Source: Patescibacteria group bacterium (GTDB lineage: Bacteria; Patescibacteriota; Kazan-3B-28). Taken from it: a stretch of 64,000 nt of DNA. The stretch covers positions 90,054 through 154,053 of the forward strand of contig JAQUNP010000002.1 of NCBI GenBank assembly GCA_028717565.1. Direction: 5' to 3'. Position numbers and translations under genes: made by a program. Under the pieces are notes generated by a model. It ran no database searches, was not told where the DNA came from, and saw only the letters and a program-made list of their open reading frames with translations. Shown in pieces: positions 29,757 through 53,697 of this stretch; positions within the stretch are counted from its first letter, which is position 1; each line of letters starts with the position of its first letter.

Positions 29757-29764
29757 GAAGGAAG

Positions 29765-29795
29765 CTCGGATTTTCATCCGAGGTTTCTTCTATTT
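29765..29795 (+). terminator. Terminator after tRNA-Gln
   Basis: CTCGGA-TTTTCA-TCCGAG followed by GTTTCTTCTATTT. Confidence 0.6.
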
Positions 29796-29879
29796 GGGCG
29801 TCGACGATTAGAACGTCCGCAGGGGTTCGCATACGATGTCCCGGTTGAACCGGGACGAGTGGGGGGACCCGCATCGTAG

Positions 29880-31091
29880 ATGTGGGAAACCTTCATTGCC
29901 GCCCCAGCCAAGAAAAAAGCAGGAGCTGGTTATAATGAGCTTGACCGGGAGCTGTTATTTAAATATTGTGAAGAGATCACGGGGGACGGTGATGTTCCCT
30001 TGATAAGGAGGTGTCTTACGGCTAAGGGTAAATTGAGAGTAAACCGTGCTCTAGCACGGCGCGTTTTTGACGCATTACTGGCGGCGCTAGAGCAAAAAGC
30101 ATTCCCTTATAATTTCGCTCAAGTTCCGCATCTGGATGAAAACTTCCCGAAAGGGATGACACTAGGTGGGGTGGAGGAGGCCCGGTTTTTGTTTGTTGTT
30201 TGCCTGTGGATGCGGGGAGGGATAAAAAGCACCACAGCATTTAAGCAGCTAGCGAGGGTATGGGAGGCGAGGGCGAACATTTTTGACCCGAGGTATGTGG
30301 CTGCACGCAAAAATTCGAAGAAGCTGGTGCGGGAGATTTCCGAGCTGCTGCAAGCGTGCGGTTTGAAATACAGGTCGGGCATGGCGTATGCGCCATATGA
30401 ATGGGTGTCCAACCTAACCAAGCTAGAATATTATTGGCACGGAGATCCGCGGCAGCTCTTTTACGGAGAAGGTGCAACCTGGGAAGATGCGTATGCTCGT
30501 ATCATTTCCACATATTCAGGCAACGGTGGCAAATTCGACCCCGATTCACCCAATGGGTTTTTGGGGTTTCGGGAAAAAATGGCCAGTATGCTGGGGTTCT
30601 TCTTGGCCGATCGGGGATTGCTCGATAGCGAGTCCTTTCCCATTCCGGTGGACTTCCACGTGATGCGAGTAATAGTGGAGTGTGGGATTATCGAGCTGCC
30701 GGATAGCTGGACGGGCTATGAATCGGACTGGAGACAGCTAGCTCAGCTGATTCGGGGGTTGACCCAGCAATACTGCGAAAAAGAAGAGCGTGACTGGAGA
30801 CGCTTAGGAGACGCCTTATGGTTGTTGTCGGGGAATGTGTGTAATCTCTACCCAGGCAATACCAGTGTGGTCGGCGAATATAACGCGCGCCAAACCTCGG
30901 TGGACTCTCGGGAGCTTATGTGGACTCCGATGCTGTCGATTAAATACTGGCAAACCTGTGGCCAGTGTCCGATAGAGCAGTTTTGCAAGCATTGTGTTCC
31001 GTCAGCTCTGTATTATCGGCAAGGCCGATTGGACATTAGGGGTAAGCACACTAAACCCCAGGGGCTCTTTTCTGAAATCGACGCCGGATAG
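29880..31091 (+). CDS. HhH-GPD-superfamily DNA glycosylase-like protein with a C-terminal Cys cluster
   Basis: GFREKMASMLGFFLADRGLL...PIPVDFHVMRV resembles the EndoIII/MutY HhH plus VDTHVxRV block. C-terminal CGQCPIEQFCKHC looks like a FeS-cluster loop. GC-rich. Start is uncertain (no clear SD). Confidence 0.5.
   Translation: MWETFIAAPAKKKAGAGYNELDRELLFKYCEEITGDGDVPLIRRCLTAKGKLRVNRALARRVFDALLAALEQKAFPYNFAQVPHLDENFPKGMTLGGVEEARFLFVVCLWMRGGIKSTTAFKQLARVWEARANIFDPRYVAARKNSKKLVREISELLQACGLKYRSGMAYAPYEWVSNLTKLEYYWHGDPRQLFYGEGATWEDAYARIISTYSGNGGKFDPDSPNGFLGFREKMASMLGFFLADRGLLDSESFPIPVDFHVMRVIVECGIIELPDSWTGYESDWRQLAQLIRGLTQQYCEKEERDWRRLGDALWLLSGNVCNLYPGNTSVVGEYNARQTSVDSRELMWTPMLSIKYWQTCGQCPIEQFCKHCVPSALYYRQGRLDIRGKHTKPQGLFSEIDAG
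29897..29910 (+). repeat. 14-nt direct repeat of the tRNA-Gln 3' end (att-like)
   Basis: TGCCGCCCCAGCCA is identical to 29743-29756. It lies inside the first codons of the ORF at 29880. Confidence 0.7.
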
Positions 31092-31119
31092 TCACGGATG
31101 ACTAGCGGCGTCGTTTTTT
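31079..31119 (+). terminator. Intrinsic terminator
   Basis: CGACGCCG...CGGCGTCG 8-bp stem with an inner TAGTCA/TGACTA pairing, then TTTTTT. Confidence 0.8.
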
Positions 31120-31154
31120 GATCTAATAACTGCTCTGGGGGCGACTATTTATTG

Positions 31155-31182
31155 TTGACAACCACAAGGAGTTTGCTAGAAT
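31155..31182 (+). promoter_or_regulatory. Sigma70-like promoter
   Basis: TTGACA-16nt-TAGAAT upstream of 31241. Confidence 0.6.
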
Positions 31183-31240
31183 GCTTTCGCTGGAGGAAAC
31201 ATCTTCTGGCGCAAAATAAATACTGTACCGAGGTGAGGAG

Positions 31241-31603
31241 ATGGACGAGCAGAATGCTGTTCCGGATGAAAAGAAGCCAGCTCACATCGTAATCTGCGAG
31301 ATGCTGGGGGAGGTGGAGTGCACCAGCGACTTGCTTCTGTTGGCCGAAGTGGCGGCGCGGATGAAGATGCCCGACGGCGAGGCCGTCAACATGGTGCTGG
31401 AGGCCCTGGAGGCCGCTGGTGATCGGGTGTGTGGCCAGTTTAACAGCGACTTCGAACTCCTCTTCGCCGAAGTTGCCGGTTTACCTGGTCCCGAGGAGGA
31501 AGAGGAGGAGGCCGAGTACACCGAGGTCGAGACCGGTGAGCCGGCCGAGGAGACGGCGGCTGCTGGGGACACCGACCCCGGCGCGGAGAGGACGGGCGAC
31601 TAG
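31241..31603 (+). CDS. Hypothetical highly acidic protein
   Basis: GAGGTGAGGAG RBS. 120 aa with an acidic tail (PEEEEEEAEYTEVETGEPAEE). GC-rich. Confidence 0.55.
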   Translation: MDEQNAVPDEKKPAHIVICEMLGEVECTSDLLLLAEVAARMKMPDGEAVNMVLEALEAAGDRVCGQFNSDFELLFAEVAGLPGPEEEEEEAEYTEVETGEPAEETAAAGDTDPGAERTGD

Positions 31604-31634
31604 CCCAATCACCTTCTCCACGATCTTGTACCAC

Positions 31635-31668
31635 CCGACCGCATGGTTCGCCCAGCGGTCGGTTTTTT
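31635..31668 (+). terminator. Intrinsic terminator
   Basis: CCGACCGC...GCGGTCGG stem followed by TTTTTT. Confidence 0.8.
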
Positions 31669-31739
31669 ATAACGGCTATTTTATTTTTTTGGTAAAAGTA
31701 GATAATGGAGCCGATGGATATCAGTTTAATTGAGAAACA

Positions 31740-32426
31740 ATGAAAGCATGGGAATGGACAGGGGCAATTGTTGGTTTGCTTTTAGTGGTAGCGGCTGGTG
31801 TGTGGTATTACTATCAGCCAAATGAGCAAACGATAGGTGGGGATACAGACGAACACGGGTGTTTGATTGGTGCTGGTTTTGGTTGGGACGAGGAAGTAGG
31901 CGCCTGTACTCGCAATTGGGAAGTGGCTACAAACGAAGACAAGGCATTGGCCAAGTTGGCGGTTGCAGAAATCGGCAGCACGGACGGTTTGACGGTGACA
32001 AGCATTGAGGCGGCCGACTGTGAAGGTTGCTTTTATGTGTTGCTGAGCCAGGGTGCGGATGATAACCAACGCCGCTATCGGGTGACCATAGTCGACGGCA
32101 AGGTGGAGAAGGTGGGTGATATCACTGACGATCTGGCGGAAGTAGGAAATGACAACCCGGCGATGGTGGAGATTACCAATCTGTTTGCCCAAAAATACAA
32201 TGTTGATGTGTCACAGATTAAACTTAGGTTTGATCAGGACACTGGTACGCATATTCGCGGCGGAGTCAGCATTGGCCATCCGGGAGAAGTGGGCGGTGGC
32301 GGTAATTTCTTTGCGGCGATGGTGGATGGAAAGTATGAGTTGGTTTATGACGGCAATGGGGCTTTTGCCTGTTCACTTTTAGACGATTACGGGTTTCCTG
32401 CAAGCATGCAGGAGGGTTGTTATTAG
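31740..32426 (+). CDS. Hypothetical membrane-anchored secreted protein
   Basis: N-terminal TM (GAIVGLLLVVAAGVWYYY). DEHGCLIGAGFGWDEEVGACTRNWE Cys pair. Confidence 0.6.
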   Translation: MKAWEWTGAIVGLLLVVAAGVWYYYQPNEQTIGGDTDEHGCLIGAGFGWDEEVGACTRNWEVATNEDKALAKLAVAEIGSTDGLTVTSIEAADCEGCFYVLLSQGADDNQRRYRVTIVDGKVEKVGDITDDLAEVGNDNPAMVEITNLFAQKYNVDVSQIKLRFDQDTGTHIRGGVSIGHPGEVGGGGNFFAAMVDGKYELVYDGNGAFACSLLDDYGFPASMQEGCY

Positions 32427-32450
32427 GCGATAAACTCACAACTAGATACA

Positions 32451-32480
32451 AAAAACGGGCGCCCGAAGGCGCCCTGTTTG
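32451..32480. terminator. Bidirectional terminator between convergent genes
   Basis: AAAAAC-GGGCGCC-CGAA-GGCGCCC-TGTTTG. Confidence 0.8.
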
Positions 32481-32546
32481 ATAACGGACCCGTAGTCCTC
32501 GCTTGGTAGAGTTAGAATAGGCATCACCGATACCCCTCGTATGGGG

Positions 32547-32993
32547 TCATGTCGTAGCCGGTGCGTCGCTGCCCTTCATACTCATGGTCGCGCTGTTGTT
32601 GAGGTAGAGGTCGCTCGCCGACGGGGTACTCATGTCGAAGAGTCCGATGTCGACGTCGCTCACATAGATCGCGTAGGGTGCACTCGCCGTCGATGTGTCG
32701 TAGAAATGACATCGATGCGGCGTCGGCTCGGTGGCCATCATGTTGGTGTACGCGGTCACCGTCATCGCGGACTCGTTCGCAGTTGTCCCAGGCCGGGCCT
32801 CGCTGGCGAAGGAGTCGAGGGAGACCGCCCAGTCCGCAGACCACATGATCGCGGGTGCCGGGACGGAAGCACGCATGTCAGCGCCATAAACCGTTGCGTT
32901 CGCGCAAACGGGGCTGGCGCGGTCGGTGGCGGCGCTGACTGGTGTCGCAACCGTCAGTGCCAAAACCATGAAAACCAACAGCAAATAGCGCAT
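32547..32993 (-). CDS. Hypothetical secreted protein (GC-rich cassette)
   Basis: GGAGGT RBS. Signal peptide MRYLLLVFMVLALTVATPVSAA. The opposite-strand ORF at 32541-33032 is Arg-rich and looks like shadow sequence. Confidence 0.6.
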   Translation of the reverse strand: MRYLLLVFMVLALTVATPVSAATDRASPVCANATVYGADMRASVPAPAIMWSADWAVSLDSFASEARPGTTANESAMTVTAYTNMMATEPTPHRCHFYDTSTASAPYAIYVSDVDIGLFDMSTPSASDLYLNNSATMSMKGSDAPATT

Positions 32994-33146
32994 GTCCTCA
33001 ATACCTCCAGGTGCATTTTGACCTTACGCTAGAAGAAGGTATGATCCTCCCCCTAACGTTTTGATAATACTAGACGATACCAGTTTTTGTCAATCAGAGA
33101 GCCAAGTTTTTGGGTGGTCGGCATTTTGGGCGGGAGGCAGGGTATA

Positions 33147-33968
33147 ATGAAATCAATGACGAAAAAGGTTGGTTTAGCATTGAGCGGCGGCGGGGCTAGA
33201 GGTGTGGCACATATCGGTGTGCTAAAGGTTTTGGATGGCAGCGGTATTCCTATAGATTGTATTGCCGGTACTAGCATGGGAGCGTTGGTGGGAGCAATGT
33301 ATGCGCTAGATAGGAACATTGATTTTGTGGAGAAGTTTTTTGAAGAAGAGGGTAATTGGCAATCGGTGCTGGGTTTGGTGGATCCTACTTTACGAGACGG
33401 CCTGATTGATGCGGAGAAGTTTAGGGTGTGGATAAACGATATCTTTCGGGGCGCAACCTTTGAAACACTAAAAATCCCCTTGGCAGTAGCAACTACCGAT
33501 CTTACAACCGGTGAGGTGGTGGAAATTACCAGTGGTGATGTAGCCATGGCAGTATGGGCAAGTATGGCGGTTCCCCCGACTTTTAAGCCGATAGCGTATC
33601 AAGAAAAAGTTTTGGCAGACGGATGGTTTAGTGAGCCACTGCCAGTGGGGTTGGCAAGAAAAATGGGAGCAGAGGTTGTGGTGGCGTCTATGTTGAGCAT
33701 TGGTGGTATGAGACGAGAGTTGGACAGAAAGGCGCGCAATTTGGTAGTGGATGCTACGACTCGGGGATTCAACATCATGGCGCATAATTTAATGCTGCAT
33801 GAGGCCGCAGGAGCCGATGTCTTGCTGTGGCCCCAGATAAAAAACATACCCTTTTTTAGCGAGGCAAGTGAACTAGCACACAGTGAAATGATAGCTGATG
33901 ATATTGCAGCCGGGGTCAGCGAGGCTACGGCAAGATTAGGTGATATTACTAAAGCAGTGGGAGGGTAG
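33147..33968 (+). CDS. Patatin-like phospholipase
   Basis: GLALSGGGARGVAHIGVL (oxyanion GGxR), GTSMGA (GxSxG), and a downstream DG (LADGWF). Confidence 0.88.
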   Translation: MKSMTKKVGLALSGGGARGVAHIGVLKVLDGSGIPIDCIAGTSMGALVGAMYALDRNIDFVEKFFEEEGNWQSVLGLVDPTLRDGLIDAEKFRVWINDIFRGATFETLKIPLAVATTDLTTGEVVEITSGDVAMAVWASMAVPPTFKPIAYQEKVLADGWFSEPLPVGLARKMGAEVVVASMLSIGGMRRELDRKARNLVVDATTRGFNIMAHNLMLHEAAGADVLLWPQIKNIPFFSEASELAHSEMIADDIAAGVSEATARLGDITKAVGG

Positions 33969-33970
33969 CA

Positions 33971-34900
33971 ATGGAAAAGTCATACAACTATGCGAGAGAC
34001 GCATTTATATATTTGCTCTCGTACGCTACTTTGCTGATCGTGGCAGTGGCACTCAATTTTTTGACCAAAGCTCTGATTGGTCGAGTGATTCCGGATGTGG
34101 CTGAAGTGGGTGATTTTATGCATGATGACCGCACTATCATCGGCTTCTTGGCGGCACTGATTATTGCCTTCCCAATATTTTGGTACATCAGTTGGCGGGC
34201 TAATAAAATGTTAGCGAAAAGCGAGATGAAGCCAAACACTGGTGTGCGGTTGTGGCTGATTTATATCACTTTGGTCGTGGTTATATTGGTTATCATTGCG
34301 CAGCTCATTGCTTTGTTTTTAACCTTTTTGCAGGGGGCGGTGGGTTTGAGGGTGCTTTTGGGAGCATTGGTGACGATTGCCATTGCGGTGAGTATATTGA
34401 TGTATCAGTGGTGGCACCTACGCGCTTTTGGTGACAAACCACTTTGGCCCAAAAGTTGGTTCAAGATTTTTGAGTGGAAGGCCCTGATTTTGGTGGCGGC
34501 GGTGGTTGTGTGGGCTTTCGCTAGCGTCGGTAGTCCCTCTGCACAACGGGCTAAGCGGTTTGACGAGATGCGGACGGAGAGATTGCGCAGCATCCAGTGG
34601 GCGGTTGAAGATTTCTACGGCTTAAAAGACAATATCAACTTTGGTCGGCTGCCGAATGCGTTGGAGGAACTCCAGGCCAATAAACGTTACTTTATTGATG
34701 AAGAGAGTCTGATAGATCCTAAAACGGGAGAGGGTTTTGAATATCGCCCATTGAGCGCTACTAGCTACGAACTGTGTGCTGTTTTTGAGACGGCTAGTGA
34801 CGCTGACTCTACGGTGCCACGACTGCCGGAGGAGTCGGGCAAGATTTTGCCGTTTGAGCATGAGGCGGGTCGGACCTGTTTTGAGCTAAGTGTGAAATAG
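33971..34900 (+). CDS. Polytopic membrane protein (DUF5671-like N-terminus)
   Basis: Four to five TM helices. The N-terminal ARDAFIYLLSYATLLIVAVAL pattern supports a tentative family call. Confidence 0.6.
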   Translation: MEKSYNYARDAFIYLLSYATLLIVAVALNFLTKALIGRVIPDVAEVGDFMHDDRTIIGFLAALIIAFPIFWYISWRANKMLAKSEMKPNTGVRLWLIYITLVVVILVIIAQLIALFLTFLQGAVGLRVLLGALVTIAIAVSILMYQWWHLRAFGDKPLWPKSWFKIFEWKALILVAAVVVWAFASVGSPSAQRAKRFDEMRTERLRSIQWAVEDFYGLKDNINFGRLPNALEELQANKRYFIDEESLIDPKTGEGFEYRPLSATSYELCAVFETASDADSTVPRLPEESGKILPFEHEAGRTCFELSVK

Positions 34901-34925
34901 GTCAGAGGTTTGGTTGAATCATCCA

Positions 34926-34957
34926 AACGCCGCCCCCTTTCAGGGGCGGCGTTTTTG
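34926..34957 (+). terminator. GC-stem terminator, copy 1 of a duplicated pair
   Basis: AACGCCGCCCC-CTTTCA-GGGGCGGCGTTTTTG. The same stem recurs at 37226. Confidence 0.85.
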
Positions 34958-34979
34958 CTGTCTGGGAGCTGATTTGGGG

Positions 34980-35008
34980 TTGACAGGGGGGCTGGTTTCA
35001 GCTAAAAT
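34980..35008 (+). promoter_or_regulatory. Sigma70-like promoter of the 35.0-37.2 kb cassette
   Basis: TTGACA-17nt-TAAAAT. Confidence 0.65.
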
Positions 35009-35021
35009 GCTACCATCTTGG

Positions 35022-35042
35022 ACATTGACAGACTGTCAATGT
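35022..35042. promoter_or_regulatory. 21-bp perfect palindrome (candidate operator)
   Basis: ACATTGACAG-A-CTGTCAATGT begins 14 nt downstream of the -10 box. Confidence 0.55.
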
Positions 35043-35073
35043 AAGAGAGCTACTCTATCGAGGAGGTTGATCC

Positions 35074-35331
35074 ATGGGTGACGACCTTCAAACATACGTG
35101 TGTGGGTATGTACAGAAGTCAGCAACATCTGGGCAGGTTGCGCATGTGCGGGTCAAGGACCCGACGAGTAAGCACAACGGTCAGGTGATGCAGGTTTCGT
35201 CTACCTGTGATGGCAAGACCCATTGGTTGGACCAGGGTCTGCATGTCCAGTTTCAGATTGGCTATAAGGAAGGCCCACCGCCACGGAAGAAGAAGATTCC
35301 ATACGCGGTGAAGGTCCGTCTAGCCGATTAG
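35074..35331 (+). CDS. Hypothetical 85-aa protein (possibly OB/cold-shock-like)
   Basis: GAGGAGG RBS. The beta-rich pattern ending LDQGLHVQFQIGYKEG...YAVKVRL loosely resembles a CSD C-terminus. Confidence 0.45.
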   Translation: MGDDLQTYVCGYVQKSATSGQVAHVRVKDPTSKHNGQVMQVSSTCDGKTHWLDQGLHVQFQIGYKEGPPPRKKKIPYAVKVRLAD

Positions 35332-35415
35332 AACGGGCATATTAAAAAACATAAACTCCTAGGACCTAGGAGTTTGCGTCGCGTCATTCGTGTCATTTCG
35401 TCCAAGGAGACGATT

Positions 35416-37191
35416 ATGCATCTCACATTTATTATGATGGCTGTTCTCCTGGTTGTTTCGGCGATCGGGGGAGGTCTGATTTGGTGGATGGTTGATCTGT
35501 CCACCGCAATCCAAGCCATTGTCTGGCTCTGGATCGTTGAGGCGGCTCTCTACATTGGTCTGATTGTCTCGCTTTGGGGCGGTAAGCGCCGAGGTGAGGT
35601 CGATATCAGCCGGGGCTGGATGTACACGGTTCTTCGCTGGGGATACCAGTGGCAACACTGGGATGGCAGCGGAGGTGTCAATTTTTGGACTGGCCGGTGG
35701 CAGCTGTACGAATACGATCCAGACGGTTGGAAACGGGACCTGGGAAGCCAGATGAAATATCGTAACATCTGTTTCTTATGCACTTGTCTTTGTGTCTGTC
35801 TTCATTTCCTACCAGTGCGACTGGTCATCCGTTTGGTCGGCTGGCTGGTGGTAACTCCACTGTGGTGGCTGCTTTGGGCGCCAATACGGCTGCTGGTACT
35901 GATCGTTTATCAACTGATCTACCAGCTCATCCTAACCCCAATCGGCCATGGCTTAGTACGCTGGTTCCCGGGTACGCGGAGATTGCTCGAGCGACCAGTA
36001 TTTGGCTGGGAACCGCTGCCGTGGTGGGTGTTGTTGGTGTGTTTGGGGCTTGGGTGCCTCTACATTGCACCGACGACTCGCTACGCCTTGGCGATTACTC
36101 TGGTCTGGATGATGAGAATATCACTGGGCCTGGGGGTAGTGGCGGCGGTTGGTTATGCCATCGGGTCGGCGTTGAACAGTGAGAAGTTCTGGGCGTTCTG
36201 GTCTGATCTCGGTAAGGCAGTGCGTGACCCTTGGGATTCACAGCTGGTTAAGCTGGGTTTCTGGGTGGTCGTTTCCTTGACCGTTCTGCTGGTCCTAAGC
36301 CCCTTGGCATTTCACTACTGGGCTACGGTCAAAGTGCTGCTCTACATCCTGGACGTTATCCTGAACGTCGGCTTCATGCTAATAGCGGTCTGGACTTGTG
36401 TCATTATCACTAGCTGGCAGAGTCGCAAGATGATCGTTCTTTCCTCTGCTGTCTTTTGGGGCATGACTGCGTTGATGGCCGGCCCGGTTTTTAACTGGTT
36501 GTATACGCAGGTATGCGATTTACTGACTGTTCATATTCCGCTGATAACTGCCGGGGTAGCTGGTACACTTTGGCTATTCTGGCTGATTATACTCGGCCCC
36601 ATCAAGAGTATCGAGACGGCGCTGGAAAGAAAGCGTCTGCTCCAAGAAAGAGCTGCCGCGGCACAACAGCAGACATGGGGAGAATTCAAACGGCGACGCC
36701 CGGTGGTTGAAGGCAAGAAGTACGACAAGGACTTGGAGTATATGAAGGACTTGTTATATATGGCGCTGGGAGTTCTATTCTGCGGCATTCTCTTGGGGGG
36801 GATAGTGACGATCATTTATACCCTGGTCATCCACATCACCTGGAGAGTGGCCATGTGGGTAGGAGCCATTGTAGCCGGAGAGGTTGTGCTGCTGGTGCTA
36901 ATGGTGCGCTGGGCGCCGGCGATGGAACGGTTCTTCGATTGGCTGTACCGACTCGGTGTCTGGGTGGCCATGGGTCCTATTGGAAAGATCGTGGTCTTCC
37001 TAGTTCGCATGGTATGGTGGTGTGTGCTGAGCTGGGCGTTCCGTATCCTGTGGGCTGTCTTGCGAGGCACTGGGTCTTTCCTGCGCAATTGCTGGTATTG
37101 GCTCTGGGACGCTGGAGCTGCCTTGGCGGAAGCTGCTCGGGATGCCAAGGTCGGGCTTTGCCCCCTGGTCAATGTCAAGGTCGAACGATAA
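35416..37191 (+). CDS. Large Trp-rich polytopic membrane protein, unknown function
   Basis: AAGGAG RBS. About 14 predicted TM helices, many W/R-rich loops, and one coiled-coil-like soluble insert (ALERKRLLQERAAAAQQQ). Confidence 0.62.
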   Translation: MHLTFIMMAVLLVVSAIGGGLIWWMVDLSTAIQAIVWLWIVEAALYIGLIVSLWGGKRRGEVDISRGWMYTVLRWGYQWQHWDGSGGVNFWTGRWQLYEYDPDGWKRDLGSQMKYRNICFLCTCLCVCLHFLPVRLVIRLVGWLVVTPLWWLLWAPIRLLVLIVYQLIYQLILTPIGHGLVRWFPGTRRLLERPVFGWEPLPWWVLLVCLGLGCLYIAPTTRYALAITLVWMMRISLGLGVVAAVGYAIGSALNSEKFWAFWSDLGKAVRDPWDSQLVKLGFWVVVSLTVLLVLSPLAFHYWATVKVLLYILDVILNVGFMLIAVWTCVIITSWQSRKMIVLSSAVFWGMTALMAGPVFNWLYTQVCDLLTVHIPLITAGVAGTLWLFWLIILGPIKSIETALERKRLLQERAAAAQQQTWGEFKRRRPVVEGKKYDKDLEYMKDLLYMALGVLFCGILLGGIVTIIYTLVIHITWRVAMWVGAIVAGEVVLLVLMVRWAPAMERFFDWLYRLGVWVAMGPIGKIVVFLVRMVWWCVLSWAFRILWAVLRGTGSFLRNCWYWLWDAGAALAEAARDAKVGLCPLVNVKVER

Positions 37192-37225
37192 ATATGTACA
37201 TCCGATGGTATGGCAAAACCATCAC

Positions 37226-37254
37226 AACGCCGCCCCCAAGGGGCGGCGTTTTTG
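37226..37254 (+). terminator. GC-stem terminator, copy 2 of a duplicated pair
   Basis: AACGCCGCCCC-CAA-GGGGCGGCGTTTTTG. Confidence 0.85.
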
Positions 37255-44630: not shown

Positions 44631-44654
44631 GGCTTCCGGTGAACGGTATAAGTT

Positions 44655-46432: not shown

Positions 46433-46571
46433 CTGGTGGCTATCAAACACTTGGCTTGCTGGGAATTTCTTGTTAGAGTGAGGGCAGCATACCTTGCTAG
46501 GACAGGCCATCGTTGTAAACGGTGGCTGATCGACAAAAGCAGGGATGACTACAGGATTTGGAGGCAACACA

Positions 46572-47030
46572 ATGTTGCGTGTGTATGTTGTACCTAGGAA
46601 TGACTCTGTTTTCCCCGGACAGGAGGTCTGGGAGATGAGTCCGGATGGTCGGTTGTGGACTACAGTATCTGCCTCAGAAGCACATCGAATCGGCTCGATA
46701 CTAAAGATCCATGGCCGTGCTTTGGATGAGGTCACCGAGGTCGTGCAGATTCCCGGTAGGATGATTCCCAGGGAAGCGCTGGATCGGCTGACGCCCTTTT
46801 GCCCGGAGACGGCCGGAAAACGCGTACTTTACCAGGTGATAGTGCCGATTCGGCTGGACGAGGTGCGACTCGAGCCTGTACCGGGCAACGATCGGTTTCA
46901 TTGGACTTCTACTGATGGGTCGTTCGTGAGCATGATCGCTCGAGCACCCGATCTGGAGACATTGGCCAAGACGCTGTCGGAACATGGCATCAAGTCGTGT
47001 CTGCACACGGAGGATGCAGTACTGCAGTAA
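46572..47030 (+). CDS. Hypothetical protein (GC-rich block)
   Basis: GGAGG lies 7 nt before the ATG at 46572. No family recognised. Confidence 0.5.
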   Translation: MLRVYVVPRNDSVFPGQEVWEMSPDGRLWTTVSASEAHRIGSILKIHGRALDEVTEVVQIPGRMIPREALDRLTPFCPETAGKRVLYQVIVPIRLDEVRLEPVPGNDRFHWTSTDGSFVSMIARAPDLETLAKTLSEHGIKSCLHTEDAVLQ

Positions 47031-47496: not shown

Positions 47497-47664
47497 GCGA
47501 GGCCCAATTTTTTCGATGACCCTCTGAAGGTTGTGGAGATGGGGTGCGGGCTTTATTGACTAAAATGGGTTATCGGCTTACCCTTTATCTGAAAAAAGGG
47601 AATCTGATGTCGTAACTGGGATATCAGGTTCCGAATATTGTTCATCATAGTGAGGTGCACAGGT

Positions 47665-48081
47665 ATGGATGATTATGTCGCCTTTTGTGAGGATCACTTG
47701 CCGGCTTCGTTAGAGGAGGCGACAAGTCGCAGACGATTGCTGGTAGAGGAAATATCAGCAATCAATATACAGCTGGGCGATCGAAATCGGATTGATCCAG
47801 CTTCTGGACGACGGCTTAGCCACGAGGAGTTCTTTCAGTGGCGGACCAGGGCACTCTGTGCCAAGGCAGCAAAAGAAAGTGAGCTGCAGTTTCTCAAGGA
47901 GTGGATTACACACCAGCACAATGTTCAAAAACGGGTTGGCAGAGACAGGTGCAAAAAACTTCTGCATGAGGCTCACCGAGTATTGGCGCGGCTGCAGGGG
48001 GCGGGGCAGATTACTTCGCCCGCGGAGCTAGATGTGCTGCGAGACATTGAGGTGTATCTCGATAAGGAGCTAGTGTCCTAA
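47665..48081 (+). CDS. Hypothetical helical protein
   Basis: GAGGTG RBS. 138 aa, basic and helical. No family recognised. Confidence 0.5.
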   Translation: MDDYVAFCEDHLPASLEEATSRRRLLVEEISAINIQLGDRNRIDPASGRRLSHEEFFQWRTRALCAKAAKESELQFLKEWITHQHNVQKRVGRDRCKKLLHEAHRVLARLQGAGQITSPAELDVLRDIEVYLDKELVS

Positions 48082-48213
48082 AGGCATCCGGCCCCAAGAT
48101 TTAGGGGATTTCAAGGGCGCTCGAAACCATCAGGGCGCTCTTACTAAAACTGATAGGGGCTGGTCTTTTGTGATACGATGCAGGTACATGTACGGTCCCA
48201 TTTTGGAGGTGTA

Positions 48214-48825
48214 ATGATGCGGATTGTAAGAATCTTGATGCTTGTTGTTATGCTTGGGGTGATGTTCCGGCCCGGGGCCACAGTATCCTCAAGCGCATTG
48301 ACTGCTGATGATCCAGGAAAGGATCAAGCCACTCAATTGGTGAAGACCAACCTGCACAATCTCCAGTTGGCGCTTGAACGTTGGTGTGTTGATCACTATC
48401 CACTGGATAGTGAAGGGCGGGTCGTTGGGTCCCAACCCAATTATCCGGAAAGTATCAGCGCACTGGTCAAGGCCGGATACGTGTCGCCCGGGTTGGCTCC
48501 CAACCCACTGGTCGGTGACGATCCCGGGGAATTCGACACCATGGATGTACCGCCAATCTGGAATGACGATTTGTCCCCTGGCAATTTTACGTATCTGCTG
48601 TGTGATGATGGTCGGGGGTATCTTTTGATCGGGTACGGCGCTACACGGGAGGCCTGTCTGAGTACGCCCCGAAGCATGGATGGTGATAGCATCCCCGATG
48701 GTGTCATCTTGGTGCTGGGATCAAACCCCGAGTTTATGGACTATGATGCGTTGTCTGGTGAGGGAAAGACAATGTTGTGGGGCGGTCGGATGTTTCGGAT
48801 CCAGTTTGTGGATGTGGGCGATTAG
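48214..48825 (+). CDS. Hypothetical secreted protein
   Basis: GGAGG RBS. Signal peptide MMRIVRILMLVVMLGVMF. Confidence 0.55.
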   Translation: MMRIVRILMLVVMLGVMFRPGATVSSSALTADDPGKDQATQLVKTNLHNLQLALERWCVDHYPLDSEGRVVGSQPNYPESISALVKAGYVSPGLAPNPLVGDDPGEFDTMDVPPIWNDDLSPGNFTYLLCDDGRGYLLIGYGATREACLSTPRSMDGDSIPDGVILVLGSNPEFMDYDALSGEGKTMLWGGRMFRIQFVDVGD

Positions 48826-48850
48826 TCGCCTGATTGGTCTAGGCAGTCAT

Positions 48851-48886
48851 ATAAAGCCGGGTGGTGCACTCGGCTTTATTTATTTA
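48851..48886 (+). terminator. Intrinsic terminator
   Basis: ATAAAGCCG...CGGCTTTAT followed by TTATTTAT. Confidence 0.7.
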
Positions 48887-48954
48887 CTTATTTGTTGGAG
48901 CTGAGGCAATTCTATGCCCATTTTTATATCACAATAGAATATCCCGTCACTATG

Positions 48955-48970
48955 TACGCTATATAGCGTA
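48955..48970. repeat. 16-bp perfect palindrome TACGCTATATAGCGTA
   Basis: Shares the core ACGCTATATAGCGT with 42071-42094. Confidence 0.8.
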
Positions 48971-49010
48971 AGTACTATGGTGTTGTTTGATGATCGGGCA
49001 GATTTTGAAT

Positions 49011-49056
49011 AAAAAAGAACCGCACCGGCTGGGTTGGAACCAGTGCATGGTGCGGT
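49011..49056 (-). terminator. 46-nt structured terminator, copy 2
   Basis: Matches 42616-42661 at 45 of 46 nt. Confidence 0.8.
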
Positions 49057-49087
49057 CTTTGTGCCAGTGTTTGGCAGGTGCAGAGGG

Positions 49088-49780
49088 CTAGCTGTTGCCC
49101 TCGGATGCGGGAGTTGTGACGGGCGTCTCGGTTTCGGCCGGGGTGTCGTCGACGCCTGGGCCGACGAACCCCATCCCCGCTGGGAAGTTGACTGGGTCGG
49201 CGGATTCTTCGCTCTTCGTCGAGGTCGTGCCGTCGAGGGGCATACTTCCGGACTGGGGAATTTCCAGGTCCAGCATGTATGCAACATGTATGCCCAGCAC
49301 ACTCCCGCCACAAGCGACAGCTGTGGGGCGGACGATGTGCGGGTAGAAGAGCTCTTCGCCGGAGATCCGGCAGATGAGCTCCTCGAGTTGTTCGATAACT
49401 GCCAAGGTGCAGACCGAACATCCTCGAATGTGCTCAACGACGGCTTGCCGGTAGTCCACAGCTGGGTTGTCGTCTGCGTGGGGGTGCGCAGCCAACAGGC
49501 ACTTCACCGCTTGCTTGGCCAGCTTCTTGGGGCTGGGGTGGCGCGGTGGTGGTGACTGCAGACAGGTCGCAAGGCGTGTCATGCTACTGAGGTTGACGTG
49601 TCCGTTCAGTAGCGACAGGGCCCACCGTTGTAAGGCAAGCCACGCAATTCTTGGGTCGGGCTCCTGAGCTAGGGGCCGAACTGTGACAGACCGCCAGACC
49701 TCGATGCCCAGCATCTCGGCGGCGGTGACCAGCAGGATCAGTGGCAATTGCTGCCACATACTATACTTTTTCAGTTGCAT
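49088..49780 (-). CDS. Hypothetical protein with an HxxxCxxC (zf-HC2/ZAS-like) motif
   Basis: GGGAGA RBS. EHIRGCSVC (H117, C121, C124; nt 49409-49432). Acidic, Pro/Thr-rich C-terminus. Confidence 0.55.
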   Translation of the reverse strand: MQLKKYSMWQQLPLILLVTAAEMLGIEVWRSVTVRPLAQEPDPRIAWLALQRWALSLLNGHVNLSSMTRLATCLQSPPPRHPSPKKLAKQAVKCLLAAHPHADDNPAVDYRQAVVEHIRGCSVCTLAVIEQLEELICRISGEELFYPHIVRPTAVACGGSVLGIHVAYMLDLEIPQSGSMPLDGTTSTKSEESADPVNFPAGMGFVGPGVDDTPAETETPVTTPASEGNS

Positions 49781-49850
49781 CGGTTTCTCCCGGACACTAC
49801 TTGGGTTGACGATAACGTATCAATAGGTTTTTTGGCTGTCAAGGGTTTCC

Positions 49851-49879
49851 TTGACTGGGAGCGGTTTTTTGTTTATTTT
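49851..49879 (+). promoter_or_regulatory. Conserved promoter module copy 2 (+ half)
   Basis: TTGACT-GGGAGCGGTTTTTTGTT-TATTTT. The back-to-back minus-strand -35 is TTGACA (rc of 49837-49842). Confidence 0.6.
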
Positions 49880-49907
49880 AAAATCATCTTTTTGACGGGA
49901 GAGAGTC

Positions 49908-50300
49908 ATGATGGGCGACGAAGGAACAGGTGCACCTCTTATGTTATGGGCAAACATGAGCGAGCCCGAGGTTATGTCAGCTCCGCCAAGAGCGCGGCCG
50001 GTGATGATTGGGGTGGCTACGGTGCTGGTGTTGCCGGAGGTGCAGGAGAGTGCCCCCCTGGGCTTTCGAAAGTTTTTCCAGGAGTACTTCTTGCCGAGCT
50101 GGCTTGGTCAACAGGCCTATGTTTGGGCAAGAGTGGGCGATGCAGCTCTGGCCAAGTTTGGGCCCGGCCGTGCGCCGGCACATCCGGAAGCCGTGGCACA
50201 GTACGGGGAGGATGGCGAGGAACGCAATGTGATTCAGTGGCTGGTGGATTTGTACCGGCGGGATCCTTCTCGCGTGACTATCCTGGGATGGTTTTCATAA
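49908..50300 (+). CDS. Hypothetical 130-aa protein
   Basis: GGGAGAGAG RBS. Downstream of promoter module copy 2. GC-rich. Confidence 0.45.
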   Translation: MMGDEGTGAPLMLWANMSEPEVMSAPPRARPVMIGVATVLVLPEVQESAPLGFRKFFQEYFLPSWLGQQAYVWARVGDAALAKFGPGRAPAHPEAVAQYGEDGEERNVIQWLVDLYRRDPSRVTILGWFS

Positions 50301-50318
50301 GGGGAGGCAAGATGATCT

Positions 50319-50355
50319 TTTGCCCTGGCGCAGCTGCGCCAGGGCAAATTATTTT
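50319..50355 (+). terminator. Intrinsic terminator
   Basis: TTGCCCTGGCGCA-GC-TGCGCCAGGGCAA palindromic stem followed by ATTATTTT. Confidence 0.75.
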
Positions 50356-50369
50356 GATACAATTAACTC

Positions 50370-50894
50370 ATGAATAAGTGGTGGTGGGCGGTGTTGGTAG
50401 TAATTTTGCTGGTAGCTTTGTGGGCGACTGGTTTTTTGGATACCAGCCAAGTGCATGATTTCCGGTCGTGCGTTGAGGCCGGCAACCCGGTGATGGAGAG
50501 CTATCCTCGTCAATGTAGCGACGGTGTTCATACATATACCGAAGACATCGGCAATGTTTTGGAAAAGGCCGATGTGATAGTTTTGGACAATGTAGTGCCA
50601 AATCAAACTATTTCTAGTCCACTAAAACTAGAGGGACGAGCTGTGGGTCAGTGGTATTTTGAGGCCTCATTCCCGGTGGAACTAAAAGACGGTAATGGTG
50701 CGACTATTGTCACAGCTGTGGCTGAAGCGCAAGGTGATTGGATGACAGAAGCGTTTGTACCGTTTGAAGTCACGCTTAAATTTACTACGCCAGTTACATC
50801 CACGGGTACACTGGTTCTGCATAAAGACAACCCGTCTGGCGAAGTGTCCAATGATGACGAGTTGGTAGTTCCAGTAAGTTTTGGGGGAGAGTAA
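50370..50894 (+). CDS. Gmad2 immunoglobulin-like domain protein, membrane-anchored
   Basis: N-terminal TM. ISSPLKLEGRAVGQWYFEASFPVELKDGNG pattern typical of Gmad2. Confidence 0.65.
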   Translation: MNKWWWAVLVVILLVALWATGFLDTSQVHDFRSCVEAGNPVMESYPRQCSDGVHTYTEDIGNVLEKADVIVLDNVVPNQTISSPLKLEGRAVGQWYFEASFPVELKDGNGATIVTAVAEAQGDWMTEAFVPFEVTLKFTTPVTSTGTLVLHKDNPSGEVSNDDELVVPVSFGGE

Positions 50895-50899
50895 ATATT

Positions 50900-51214
50900 A
50901 TGGGGAGGATTAATTTGGTGCCACCGGTCACAGTGGCCAAACAAGCCGAGAAGGGTCTTGAGCTTCGTCGTAGATTTGGCCGAGGGGGAACGGCCGTGGG
51001 TATAGCTCGGGCTCGGGATTTGAAGAACAGAAAAACTTTGACACCAGAAACCATCATGCGGATGGTTTCGTATTTTGCTAGGCACGAAATCGACAAAAAA
51101 GGTAAGGATTTTTATAACAAGGAACGTCCATCTAATGGCTATATTGCTTGGCTGCTATGGGGTGGTGAGCCCGGTAAGACCTGGGCCAATAAAACGAAAG
51201 GGCTTTTGAAATGA
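50900..51214 (+). CDS. Hypothetical conserved 104-aa protein
   Basis: Compact basic protein. ATGA-coupled to the tspO-like gene. Confidence 0.5.
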   Translation: MGRINLVPPVTVAKQAEKGLELRRRFGRGGTAVGIARARDLKNRKTLTPETIMRMVSYFARHEIDKKGKDFYNKERPSNGYIAWLLWGGEPGKTWANKTKGLLK

Positions 51215-51681
51215 AGACAACACTTCCCTATCTACTCATAATAATGTCTGTGTCGGCGGTAGCATTGGTTGGCGGGTGGCTGACATCCCTTGGTATTCCC
51301 GATTGGTATGAAACATTGACTTTGCCAGCAATTGCTCCTGGTGGCAGTGTAATAGGCACGATTTGGACAATTATTTTTGTGCTGGCGGCCTGGGCTGTGA
51401 TGTTGATGTGGCGGGACAGAAAAAAATTTAATAATTTCAATCTTTTGCTAGATCTCTTGCTGATTAATGCGATTTTAAATGTGGGTTGGTCGTGGGTGTT
51501 TTTTGTTCAACATGCTCTTGCGTGGGCAGTGGTAGAGATGATAGTTCTGAATCTTACTACACTCATAATCATTGTGTGGACAATGCGCAAGGTGTCTCTA
51601 GCTGGGTGGTTGTTAGTGCCCTACTTTGCGTGGGTGGGGTTTGCCACTTATTTGGCGTATCAAATTTATATTTTGAATTAA
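51211..51681 (+). CDS. tspO: TspO/MBR tryptophan-rich sensory protein
   Basis: Five TM helices. The WYETLTLPAIAPGG and W-rich helices match the TspO pattern. Confidence 0.85.
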   Translation: MKTTLPYLLIIMSVSAVALVGGWLTSLGIPDWYETLTLPAIAPGGSVIGTIWTIIFVLAAWAVMLMWRDRKKFNNFNLLLDLLLINAILNVGWSWVFFVQHALAWAVVEMIVLNLTTLIIIVWTMRKVSLAGWLLVPYFAWVGFATYLAYQIYILN

Positions 51682-51728
51682 AAACCGCGCAGTCAACCAG
51701 AGCTTGTCTGGCGACCACGCGATTTTTT
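51680..51728. terminator. Bidirectional terminator between tspO and gmd
   Basis: AAAAACCGCG...CCAGA-GCTTG-TCTGG...CGCGATTTTTT. Confidence 0.6.
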
Positions 51729-51745
51729 CAAGGTGACTCGGTGGT

Positions 51746-52837
51746 TTAGGCCGAGGCGGATACGAGAGCGATGTCGTGCTCGACCATTCGTCGGATCATT
51801 TCTTCGAATGAGGTCTGGCGCGGATTCCAGTCGAGCTCCTGAATGGCTCTGGTTGGGTCGCAGCAGAGATAGGGTACTTCCTTGGGCCGGAAGAACCGGG
51901 GATTGATACGGACGCGTACCGCACCGTCAACCCTCAATACGGTGTTCTCGGTACAGCGGCCTGTTGCGTCGTCGCCCTCCCAGACCATCTTGGCGGTGGG
52001 ATACGCCACGCGGAAGGCGGTTTGGACAAGTTCGCGGACCGAGCGGTGTTCGCCGGTACCAATGACATAATCACGGAGCTCGCCCGTCTTTCTGGCACGT
52101 TCCACCATGGCGTGCATGGCCCAAACATAGTCCGGGGCATAGCCCCAGTCGCGTACTGCATCCACATTGCCCAGTTCGATGCATTCCTGTAATCCAGCCA
52201 GGATCATGGCAACAGCTCTGGTGATTTTGCGAGTAACGAACTGAACTCCTCGGATTTCCGACTCATGATTGAAGAGGATGCCACAGACGACTTTGGCCCG
52301 AAAGTGCGGATCGGCGCGGAACATCCGCATGGCGCAGTAGGCGTCATACTTGGACTTGCCATAGACACCTGCGGGTGTGAAGGGCGTGTCCTCGTTTTGC
52401 ACCGGATACTGGCTGAGGTCGGCTTTGCCGAAGAGCTCGGAGGTCAGCGCCTGATACATGTAGCAGGCGGGGCAGACGTTGAGCATGGCTTGCAGCAGAT
52501 TGACGGCTCCGTAATGGTTGGTGGCCTGGACCTCTTCTGGCATCTGCTCCGCGAACTGAACATGAGTGAAGGCAGCCAGATTGAAAAGCATCTGCGGTTT
52601 GTACTTCTCGAGGATATGATGCAGGCTGGTGGGAGACAGGAGGTTGCCCAGTTCCAATACGAACTGGCCTTGAGCCATATAATCACGGAGCTCGAGAAGT
52701 CGAAGACGCCCTTCGGGGTAGTAATCGCTGGTACAGCGAACTAGCCCAACGACAAAGTAGCCCAGCTTCACCAGCAGACGGGTCAGGTAAGCCCCGTCCT
52801 GGCCAGTGACTCCGGTGACGAACGCTCTTTTTTGCAA
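51746..52837 (-). CDS. gmd: GDP-mannose 4,6-dehydratase
   Basis: FVTGVTGQDGAYL Rossmann motif. SDR-extended blocks (ELFGK, YGKSKY, GILFNHES). Start set at the TTG at 52837, 7 nt after GGAGG. GC-rich. Confidence 0.88.
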   Translation of the reverse strand: MQKRAFVTGVTGQDGAYLTRLLVKLGYFVVGLVRCTSDYYPEGRLRLLELRDYMAQGQFVLELGNLLSPTSLHHILEKYKPQMLFNLAAFTHVQFAEQMPEEVQATNHYGAVNLLQAMLNVCPACYMYQALTSELFGKADLSQYPVQNEDTPFTPAGVYGKSKYDAYCAMRMFRADPHFRAKVVCGILFNHESEIRGVQFVTRKITRAVAMILAGLQECIELGNVDAVRDWGYAPDYVWAMHAMVERARKTGELRDYVIGTGEHRSVRELVQTAFRVAYPTAKMVWEGDDATGRCTENTVLRVDGAVRVRINPRFFRPKEVPYLCCDPTRAIQELDWNPRQTSFEEMIRRMVEHDIALVSASA

Positions 52838-52910
52838 GGGAACACCTCCCCCTTGGTTTGACAATACTGGCCTTAGCTTACCATAGGCAAGCTAAATGGC
52901 AACTGAAATA

Positions 52911-52939
52911 TTGACTGGGAGCGGATTTTGCGGTAGGGT
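52911..52939 (+). promoter_or_regulatory. Conserved promoter module copy 3 (+ half)
   Basis: TTGACT-GGGAGCGGATTTTGCGG-TAGGGT. The candidate back-to-back -35 for gmd is TTGCCA (rc of 52897-52902). Confidence 0.55.
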
Positions 52940-52968
52940 GCAAGTATTCTTGTACGAGGAGGTGGGGT

Positions 52969-53631
52969 ATGACTCCCCAACCGTTTAGAATCCCTCAAAG
53001 GATTGCGGATATCAAAGGGTTTGAGGACCCTGATATCTTCATGATTCTGGGGGACATACAGCGTCCCCTGCTGCGCCAGCTTGAGGCGGACATCATCAAA
53101 GCTCCACCGGAAAGACACGGTCACGGCATTCTGCTGCTAATCGAGTCCCCGGGCGGGGACACGCAAACGGCTGGTGTGGTGACGAGTGCTATAAGTCACT
53201 TTATCAACCGGCCGGTAGCCGTACTGGCATTGGGGGCATGCCATAGTGCTGCCTTCAATATCTTCATGGCGGTGCCACCTGAGCATCGATTTGCGGTCCC
53301 CACTGCAACTTTCATGGCGCACCATGGTAGCTACAACATTCTCGACTTGGGGGGAGTGGTGGATGTTGAGCAGGGCACAGTAGGCGGGTTGACCGAAGAT
53401 GAGATGGCACTCAAGGTCCGTCTCTGTCATCGGGAGGCGCTTTACTGGAAACGGTGGCAACTGGCAGTATTGGGGGCGCGGATAGAGGCCGCGTTGCCCG
53501 AAGGTTGCTCGGTGGGGACCTTCCTGAAACTAGATGTCATTATCAATGCCCAGCAAGCATTGGAGATGGGCATCGTCAGGGACGTCATTCCTCCGAATGA
53601 CGACCTGCTTAAATCAGCTCCGGCTCAGTAG
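52969..53631 (+). CDS. ClpP/crotonase-fold serine protease-like protein
   Basis: GAGGAGG RBS. LLLIESPGGDTQTAG, GACHSAAFNIF (Ser), FMAHH (His) and LKLDVIINAQQALEMGIV align by eye to the ClpP catalytic triad regions. Confidence 0.6.
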   Translation: MTPQPFRIPQRIADIKGFEDPDIFMILGDIQRPLLRQLEADIIKAPPERHGHGILLLIESPGGDTQTAGVVTSAISHFINRPVAVLALGACHSAAFNIFMAVPPEHRFAVPTATFMAHHGSYNILDLGGVVDVEQGTVGGLTEDEMALKVRLCHREALYWKRWQLAVLGARIEAALPEGCSVGTFLKLDVIINAQQALEMGIVRDVIPPNDDLLKSAPAQ

Positions 53632-53641
53632 CCGGAGCTGA
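53614..53641 (+). terminator. Hairpin overlapping the stop codon
   Basis: TCAGCTCCGGC-TCAGTA-GCCGGAGCTGA. The T-run is weak. Confidence 0.5.
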
Positions 53642-53697
53642 TCAATTTGTGAACAAAAACAGATTTTGAGTTACAATTTAGATATGGGGGAAGATTC

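Follow-up and report, generated by a model that had tools for sequence, protein, structure and literature searches.

The 64,000-nucleotide stretch of DNA analysed here (the window) belongs to a metagenome-assembled genome (MAG) that NCBI labels 'Patescibacteria group bacterium' (locus tags PHR51_026xx; source contig of 177,896 bp), and between positions 29757 and 53650 it contains a variable zone in which conserved operons alternate with small, GC-richer gene units, referred to below as units or cassettes. The zone begins directly after a tRNA-Gln gene, which was located where an earlier note on this DNA had placed it. According to Pfam, the backbone genes of the zone encode patatin, DUF5671, TcpC-like, GyrA, small membrane, SPFH, Gmad2, 104-residue and TspO proteins, and the identities that the note had given to gyrA, patatin, DUF5671, SPFH, Gmad2 and TspO hold. 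The flanks carry the division and cell wall (dcw) cluster and the genes for aminoacyl-tRNA synthetases, ribosomal protein S1 and initiation factor IF-2. The closest relatives of gyrA (38499-41375) are those of Peregrinibacteria/Peribacteria MAGs (55-68% identity), which, together with the NCBI label, bears out the suspicion of a host from the candidate phyla radiation (CPR); judged by its sequence, the organism is a Peregrinibacteria-like CPR bacterium. The backbone operons, including the essential gyrA, are intact and tightly spaced. All lie on the plus strand, as the note had claimed for the backbone genes; that this does not hold for the genome as a whole is indicated by rnc, on the minus strand just past the right end of the window.

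GC content is 0.469 to the left (1-29500), 0.512 in the zone (29757-53650) and 0.466 to the right (53651-64000). Seven segments within the zone have a GC content of 0.533-0.594, values not equalled by any same-length window outside the region (maxima 0.494-0.532), while the six backbone pieces interleaved with them (0.416-0.495) are indistinguishable from the outside DNA. The proposed mosaic of backbone and GC-rich DNA is thus borne out, with all segments above every control window and a profile far beyond chance. Rather than one contiguous atypical block, the zone has seven separate blocks split by backbone of normal GC that includes gyrA; the compositionally foreign DNA amounts to ~13.6 kb in total and the units lie 6-13 GC points above the backbone. 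All seven main segments on the earlier list of cassettes proved GC-rich, and GC-stem terminators were found as claimed. A small patch on that list at 29.5-29.65 kb was rejected as a cassette; it is non-coding, a structured leader downstream of a promoter-like site and upstream of the tRNA gene. The six minus-strand genes said to lie in GC-rich DNA were recovered as five in the region and one, 1149-1301(-), in a patch at 1.1 kb. Since the gyrA loci of sampled relatives have a GC content of 0.33-0.46, the lineage as such does not account for the excess GC.

At the level of genes, GC at third codon positions (GC3) has a mean of 0.497 and a standard deviation of 0.036 per gene outside the region. 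Nine genes in the zone exceed this by a z-score of at least 3 and another reaches 2.9, the most extreme values (0.79 to 0.67) belonging to the genes of units 1 and 2, the 230-residue gene of unit 6, the first gene of unit 7 and the longest gene of unit 4; six more are weakly GC3-rich, with z-scores of 1.4-2.5 (Table 1). As strong and weak genes are mixed in them, the segments at 29.8-31.7 and 47.5-50.35 kb are internally heterogeneous.

Table 1. Gene units and other features of the variable zone, with one unit outside it (aa, amino acids; ORF, open reading frame; SD, Shine-Dalgarno sequence; ORFs are on the plus strand unless marked; strong, GC3 z-score of at least 3; weak, z-score of 1.4-2.5; promoters and terminators are predictions)
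Feature	Positions	Strand	Content	Signals and flanks
Mini-unit outside the region	1070-1320	-	50-aa ORF 1149-1301(-), GC3 0.86	AGGAGG SD; GC hairpin terminator 1070-1105
tRNA-Gln (UUG)	29683-29756	+	ARAGORN call; Rfam 62.5 bits; left edge of variable zone	
403-aa gene	29880-31091	+	mildly GC-rich, GC3 0.57, z = 2.0 (weak); C-terminal Cys cluster; helix-hairpin-helix (HhH)/AGOG-like, glycosylase-like	
Unit 1	31155-31668	+	120-aa acidic ORF 31241-31603, GC 0.64, GC3 0.79 (strong)	promoter-like site 31155-31182 (11/12 matches); hairpin and T-run ~31635-31668
Unit 2	32457-33093	-	148-aa ORF 32547-32993(-), signal-peptide-like N-terminus, GC 0.62, GC3 0.77 (strong)	promoter-like site 33093-33064 (11/12); bidirectional GC hairpin 32457-32474
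Unit 3	34907-37254	+	85-aa ORF 35074-35331 (strong); 605-aa Trp-rich multi-pass membrane ORF 35374-37191 (strong)	promoter-like site 34980-35008 (11/12); ~50-nt imperfect direct repeats with GC hairpin 34907-34957 and 37207-37254
Zinc-ribbon unit	41987-42607	-	104-aa four-CxxC zinc-ribbon ORF 42201-42515(-) (weak)	a member of the native palindromic terminator family on either side (41987-42020, 42574-42607)
Unit 4	42608-45245	both	494-aa all-helical ORFan 42688-44172(-), GC3 0.67 (strong); 99-aa Cys-rich ORF 44331-44630(+), z = 2.9; 130-aa membrane ORF 44853-45245(+) (weak)	54-nt terminator 42608-42661; shared promoter-region motif 44267-44287
ABC-transporter gene fragment	46281-46422	+	142 nt, 87% identical to codons ~115-161 of 55365-57212; intergenic, after SPFH	
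Unit 5	46545-47030	+	161-aa ORF, GC 0.55, GC3 0.59 (weak)	
Unit 6	47638-50348	both	147-aa ORF 47638-48081 (weak); 215-aa ORF 48178-48825 (weak); 230-aa ORF 49088-49780(-), GC 0.61, GC3 0.72 (strong); 130-aa ORF 49908-50300(+) (strong)	terminators 48851-48879 and 50319-50348; 54-nt terminator, copy 2, 49003-49056; shared motif 49850-49870
Unit 7	51746-53631	both	divergent GDP-mannose 4,6-dehydratase (Gmd) 51746-52864(-), GC3 0.68 (strong); very divergent ClpP-like 52969-53631(+) (strong)	shared motif 52910-52930

The units differ from the backbone in more than GC content. The dinucleotide distance (delta*) between the pooled cassettes and the outside DNA was 78, compared with 20.5 ± 7.9 (maximum 45) for equally structured outside samples. 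The tetranucleotide check that the earlier note had proposed gave a signature distinct from that of the backbone, with a GC-normalised correlation (TETRA z-scores) of 0.46 between cassette pool and outside DNA and of 0.67 ± 0.05 (minimum 0.57) for backbone samples. In tetranucleotide fit, 16 of 16 backbone chunks were closer to the backbone than to the cassettes, and four of five cassettes were closer to the other cassettes than to the backbone, by a slight difference. All three codon positions are shifted (cassettes versus backbone: 0.61 versus 0.53 at the first, 0.44 versus 0.39 at the second and 0.69 versus 0.50 at the third), as are the encoded proteins, in which the arginine share R/(K+R) is 0.65 versus 0.44, the ratio of GARP to FYMINK residues is 1.3-1.4 versus 0.96, and the median cysteine content is 2.1-2.4% versus 0.2%, roughly a tenfold difference (p = 6e-5). 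The backbone proteome is itself nearly free of cysteine, at a median of 0.2% per protein. SD duplexes average -8.6 kcal/mol in the GC-rich genes and -3.7 in the rest (p = 7e-4). A log-likelihood codon-usage classifier was dropped as evidence, as under the strong strand skew of this genome it mainly sorts minus-strand from plus-strand genes. Differing significantly from the host in GC, codon-position and oligonucleotide composition, the units have the compositional mark by which horizontally acquired genomic islets are recognised, and the zone is probably best explained by repeated horizontal acquisition of small, moron-like gene units from one or a few GC- and cysteine-richer sources, followed by partial amelioration.

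The strand skew of the units bears on how long they have been in place. On the plus strand the backbone has a GC3 skew of 0.29 ± 0.11, and all 11 GC-rich genes have the same plus-strand sign whether they are coded on the plus (6) or the minus strand (5; Fisher p = 0.002), with a mean of 0.19 that is below the backbone value and corresponds to about two-thirds of the host skew. Since the skew follows the host replication strand, the units are not recent but have long resided in their present orientation, and they are partly ameliorated. The protein signature of the strongly GC3-rich genes recurs in the six weak ones, as would be the case if these had arrived earlier and their synonymous sites had since moved toward the host composition.

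This host-specific skew also makes an assembly chimera strongly disfavoured. That sequence of a GC-richer organism was joined into a CPR contig during assembly or binning is a natural concern for a contig from a MAG, the more so as the organism was found in one sequencing run only. Contigs of the Logan assembly of that run (SRR22315506) were, however, 100% identical over 29729-42644, 42619-45721 and 49014-59780, so that a second assembler reproduced 11 of the 14 unit borders, the junctions for which a chimera check had been advised; both assemblies were probably built from the same reads. The Logan contigs break at the 54-nt terminator repeat, as expected of a de Bruijn assembler, and once inside the SPFH gene. 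Fourteen clean intergenic joins that leave the backbone operons intact are likewise unlike chimeras, and the GC-rich stretches contain host-type palindromes and a fragment of a host gene. An artefact of assembly or binning is thus extremely improbable. The contig end within SPFH, at 45721, may be due to a repeat or to variation between strains; the collection has no exact copy of the SPFH protein.

Few of the proteins encoded by the units can be placed in a family. Apart from the 403-residue protein, only the Gmd and the ClpP-like proteins have a recognised family among the GC-rich ORFs, and the remaining GC-rich ORFs had no match in Pfam (also under permissive settings), PHROGs, PADLOC or NCBIfam. 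The best non-self identity of Gmd was 49%, with all others at 46% or less (cellular proteins of mixed phyla) and a viral best of 41%, and the best homologue is set in an ordinary bacterial chromosome. With 46 bits, the ClpP-like protein stays far below the NCBIfam cut-off of 228 bits, and it matches solved ClpP structures at E = 1.5e-6 and the PHROG head-maturation-protease families at E ~1e-3 only. The zinc-ribbon ORF gave only weak hits to HypA and to endonuclease zinc ribbons. Eight orphan proteins are singletons, or are paired only with their own Logan copy, at 90% identity among 15 billion sequences, and a word-indexed search of 5.8 billion cluster representatives returned no homologue of the 494-residue protein but itself. 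Single-sequence AlphaFold2 models were of low confidence (predicted local distance difference test of 51 for the 494-residue and 47 for the 215-residue protein), too low for a fold search. The proteins of different units are mutually unrelated.

The 403-residue gene at the head of the zone has a different standing. An exhaustive HMMER search recovered 376 cluster representatives of its family at E<=1e-3, the best at 55% identity, and all named members are from Falkowbacteria and Patescibacteria; the family profile weakly matches the archaeal 8-oxoguanine glycosylase (AGOG) around a PVDFHV motif. Being only mildly GC-rich and having named homologues in the CPR, this gene may be native, or an old arrival. 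The cassette that the earlier note had drawn at 29.8-31.7 kb thus stands for the strongly GC-rich unit 1, but not securely for the 403-residue gene beside it.

Orphan status is equally expected of fast-evolving native genes, and under this alternative the units were never transferred: they would be lineage-specific genes whose composition arose internally, through GC-biased gene conversion, the selection regime or the near-random make-up of young genes. The GC3 skew that tracks the host replication strand in 11 of 11 genes of either orientation agrees with such an origin, and so do the CPR homologues of the 403-residue gene, the lack of mobility genes and att-type repeats, and contents of cysteine and tryptophan that, by our own estimate, are near those of random-sequence coding at this GC. 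It accounts less well for shifts at the first and second codon positions and in the Arg/Lys ratio besides the shift in GC3, for the difference in the GC-normalised tetranucleotide signature, and for Gmd and ClpP, which are genuine distant members of conserved enzyme families and have the same composition as the orphans. Further, orphan genes (ORFans) are usually AT-richer, not GC-richer, than their genome, as Daubin and Ochman (2004) reportedly found. The units also have their own predicted promoters, stronger SD sequences and terminators unlike the palindromic family of the backbone, and they occur in both orientations whereas the backbone genes of the window point, almost without exception, the same way. 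A native origin is regarded as unlikely.

The regulatory DNA of the units argues for acquisition as complete modules. Consensus and pattern scans of 29.3-45.5 kb placed three of the four best sigma-70-like sites (11/12 matches) directly upstream of cassette ORFs, in units 1 and 3 on the plus strand and in unit 2 on the minus strand, and the strongest predicted hairpin terminators downstream of cassette ORFs. With these promoter-like sites and strong hairpins at their edges, most units have the predicted promoter and terminator of their own that characterise morons. Some of these signals recur between units. A 21-nt promoter-region motif, CTTGACTGGGAGCGGnTTTTT, occurs at 44267, 49850 and 52910 (0.01 chance matches expected), each time in a divergent intergenic region and ~65 nt upstream of a plus-strand ORF, and the 54-nt terminator, 94% identical at 42608 and 49003, lies downstream of the 494- and the 230-residue minus-strand genes. 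That three units share the motif and two the terminator suggests, from sequence likeness, a common source. Upstream of both terminator copies, at 42069-42100 and 48949-48980, the units have another short element in common, which is centred on the palindrome ACGCTATATAGCGT. In the 42-kb copy this element is set apart from the terminator by the zinc-ribbon ORF and a native palindrome, which suggests a nested insertion there. The 54-nt hairpin was also considered as a tRNA-like structure and rejected, as its loop misfits a T-loop and neither Rfam nor ARAGORN called it. Another sequence, TTGACTGG at 46284, was at first taken for a promoter and rejected, as it belongs to the ABC-transporter gene fragment.

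Shared hairpins and flanking repeats could also be read as traces of a site-specific or hairpin-targeted cassette system, with its enzyme encoded elsewhere and acting at terminator-like hairpins, loosely by analogy with integron attC sites or IS200/IS605 elements. Two units have borders of this type: unit 3 and the zinc-ribbon unit are flanked by imperfect direct repeats of 40-50 nt with a hairpin, whose left-right alignment scores (22 versus 7.4 ± 1.1 for shuffles, and 24.5 versus 8.6 ± 1.1) correspond to z = 13-15, and each border pairs only with its own partner. Additionally, two units share the 54-nt hairpin element with a palindrome nearby. However, the other six of eight border pairs share no repeat, and the repeat around the zinc-ribbon unit is simply the common terminator palindrome, which the genome has at five or more sites. 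No tyrosine recombinase or transposase was hit in the region, and units with predicted promoters of their own, in both orientations and non-contiguous, are unlike integron arrays. Such a system is considered very unlikely, and acquisition of separate units with their own regulatory DNA is preferred. The terminator palindrome itself belongs to a family of perfect 27-nt palindromes (TCAAYGGCTCA-N5-TGAGCCRTTGA) followed by T-runs at operon ends, with copies at 16022, 29424, 41992, 42579 and 55275 and more distant ones at 6549 and 4870; it is a native terminator family resembling repetitive extragenic palindromes. The two copies most alike, at 29419 and 55270 (88%), lie on either side of the entire variable zone.

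Scans of the called ORFs between 28.4 and 55.2 kb with Pfam and PHROGs identified no integrase, transposase or recombinase, which bears out the earlier note on this point. The 3' end of tRNA-Gln (20 and 28 nt, up to 3 mismatches) matched only the tRNA gene itself within the window. PHROGs scans of 20 ORFs found no phage hallmark genes (capsid, terminase, portal, tail), and the PHROG hits of cassette ORFs were limited to generic ClpP, epimerase and zinc-ribbon families. The integron integrase gene intI was not found and no attC-like sites were seen, though no formal attC model was run.

Because a tRNA gene immediately precedes the zone, one GC-rich element of ~13 kb might have integrated, in a single event, at tRNA-Gln and later have been broken up and mixed with the backbone. 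The regulatory DNA that units 4, 6 and 7 have in common and the slightly closer tetranucleotide usage of four of five cassettes to each other would agree with one element, and the ABC-transporter fragment, which marks a past rearrangement beside unit 5 and is either what is left of a lost paralogue or the scar of a duplication, indicates that rearrangement has occurred here. Many random rearrangements would not have kept the backbone operons intact, tight and all on the plus strand, however, and neither an integrase remnant nor a repeat of the tRNA 3' end was found. The range of GC3 across units, 0.55-0.86, suggests different ages, and units of this sort are also present elsewhere, one within the dcw cluster 28 kb upstream and another just past the window. 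A single integration is therefore held to be highly improbable, in comparison with repeated acquisition. The upstream example is the mini-unit of Table 1, placed inside the dcw cluster between an ftsL-like gene and ftsI, whose 50-residue ORF had no family match in permissive Pfam scans. A 336-residue ORF ~300-1300 nt past the right end of the window, between rbfA and the minus-strand rnc, has 3.3% cysteine, a GC content of 0.53 and CxxC motifs, and its protein signature is like that of the weakly GC-rich units. Given these two, the process extends past the 24-kb zone, the place where it is densest in the available DNA.

Neither donors nor closely related recipients came to light. The nearest gyrA was at most 68% identical among GTDB species representatives and 59% in JGI metagenomes, and tblastn of all window proteins revealed no shared neighbours; with gyrA loci at a GC content of 0.33-0.46, the sampled relatives are not candidate donors. 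Exact look-ups of backbone and cassette proteins for strain variants returned only the Logan contigs of SRR22315506. Among viruses and plasmids, a search of IMG/VR for the 54-nt terminator and a blastn comparison of 42.0-50.0 kb with phages gave no match, tblastn of the 605-residue, 494-residue and ClpP-like proteins against phages or plasmids gave nothing useful, and IMG/VR scans with the 605-residue, ClpP-like and Gmd proteins found nothing closer than the cellular hits. The high-GC host or phage that the earlier note had offered as a donor gained no support, with no close relatives in the phage, plasmid and IMG/VR sets or, for the 494-residue ORFan, in the protein collection. Literature searches yielded nothing on this MAG or on comparable CPR loci.

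Several points weigh against repeated acquisition. It is composition alone that marks the units as foreign, since no donor or close homologue was found, and the insertion itself was not seen, as the nearest relatives (gyrA at 68% identity or less) share no neighbouring genes and so offer no genome in which the units could be seen to be absent. Flanking direct repeats are present in two units only, and no common border signature points to a mechanism. The host-strand GC3 skew in all 11 GC-rich genes is also expected of native genes and is the best argument for a native origin. The 403-residue gene of the first segment has CPR homologues. Finally, the difference in SD strength may be due in part to G-rich upstream DNA, and some start codons are uncertain.

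Combined with the compositional and regulatory evidence, repeated acquisition nevertheless offers a coherent account, in which we infer a foreign origin, a common source and a route of entry. A variable zone would start at tRNA-Gln on the Peregrinibacteria-like chromosome, and at least seven small foreign units would have come in where operons meet, among conserved genes co-oriented with replication, namely those of the patatin-DUF5671, TcpC-like with gyrA, SPFH and Gmad2-TspO operons. Most of these units are complete by prediction, with a sigma-70-like promoter, usually a strong SD sequence, one to four ORFs and a GC-hairpin terminator, and they occur in either orientation. They may stem from a single source, or from a few, with more GC, arginine and cysteine, given the promoter-region or terminator DNA shared by units 4, 6 and 7. 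During a long residence the units would have taken up about two-thirds of the host GC3 skew, with some losing most of their GC3 excess. As to the route, DNA uptake followed by recombinase-independent insertion near terminators, illegitimate or based on microhomology, is tentatively put forward as the likeliest. In a bolder and rather doubtful version, the CPR bacterium would capture promoter-to-terminator units from a single unsampled GC- and cysteine-richer partner, a host cell or a virus, without a recombinase and perhaps by competence uptake and insertion at terminator hairpins, as a chromosomal counterpart of morons. Should this be true, the 21-nt motif and the 54-nt terminator would be traces of the regulatory DNA of that partner.

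It should be noted that several features of the backbone and of the tRNA gene stand apart from the units. GyrA has a C-terminal extension of ~140 residues (40950-41375), rich in lysine, alanine and threonine and resembling in appearance a histone-H1-like basic tail, that the matched relatives do not have (alignments end at query residue ~815-859), and within the DNA that encodes it a 56-nt unit occurs twice at a spacing of 114 nt (41077-41132, 41191-41246). The 104-residue protein of backbone composition in the Gmad2-TspO operon, 50900-51214(+), matches PHROG 2859, whose function is unknown (E = 1e-14), along positions 164-258 of the 740 in the profile. Directly upstream of tRNA-Gln (29482-29682, plus strand) lies a GC-rich leader of ~140 nt, itself preceded by a promoter-like site (TTTAGA-17-TATAAT with TG). 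The leader folds strongly (-53.5 kcal/mol), contains GTGGGGCGTAG twice and gave no hit in Rfam, and it may represent a small RNA or the leader of a precursor. The sequences upstream and downstream of the tRNA gene were compared and their similarity was not significant.

The CPR bacteria have tiny genomes with few recognisable mobile elements, and their gain of genes is poorly documented. At this locus ~13.6 kb of DNA of foreign composition, mostly in self-contained orphan units, lies between essential genes without an integrase. Identifying the donor could reveal which organism or virus is the partner of an uncultured epibiont and would provide a concrete case for recombinase-free gene capture. 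As horizontal acquisition, the locus is a clear and unusually dense case of the ordinary kind, not a new kind of system.

Several known systems invite comparison. As in integron cassettes, the units are small, comprise one to a few genes of unrelated function and share short structured DNA at their ends; unlike integron cassettes, they have their own promoter-like sites, both orientations and backbone between them, with no intI and with a repeat at two of eight border pairs. The position directly downstream of a tRNA gene, the atypical GC and the many hypothetical genes recall tRNA-linked genomic islands, from which the zone differs in having no integrase, no direct repeat of the tRNA 3' end and foreign DNA interleaved with essential backbone genes. 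The islands of Prochlorococcus and the hypervariable regions of SAR11 hold strain-specific orphan genes at a few spots, often by tRNA genes and often without obvious mobility genes, and the zone is like them in concentrating orphan genes beside a tRNA gene of a small genome, again with no obvious mobility genes. Conversely, those regions are defined by strain comparison and have a composition like the core or AT-richer, while the units here are known from composition and are GC-richer by 6-13 points. The closest parallel in the architecture of single units may be the so-called morons reportedly described from phages by Juhala et al. (2000) and Hendrix et al. (2000), whose own mode of insertion is, to our knowledge, unknown. 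The setting differs, as here it is a bacterial chromosome with an essential gyrA, with no phage structural or replication genes and no meaningful PHROG hits. What the units have in common with morons is their build as autonomous promoter-ORF-terminator modules, set between conserved co-oriented genes, of a composition unlike that of their neighbours and not needed by the operons around them.

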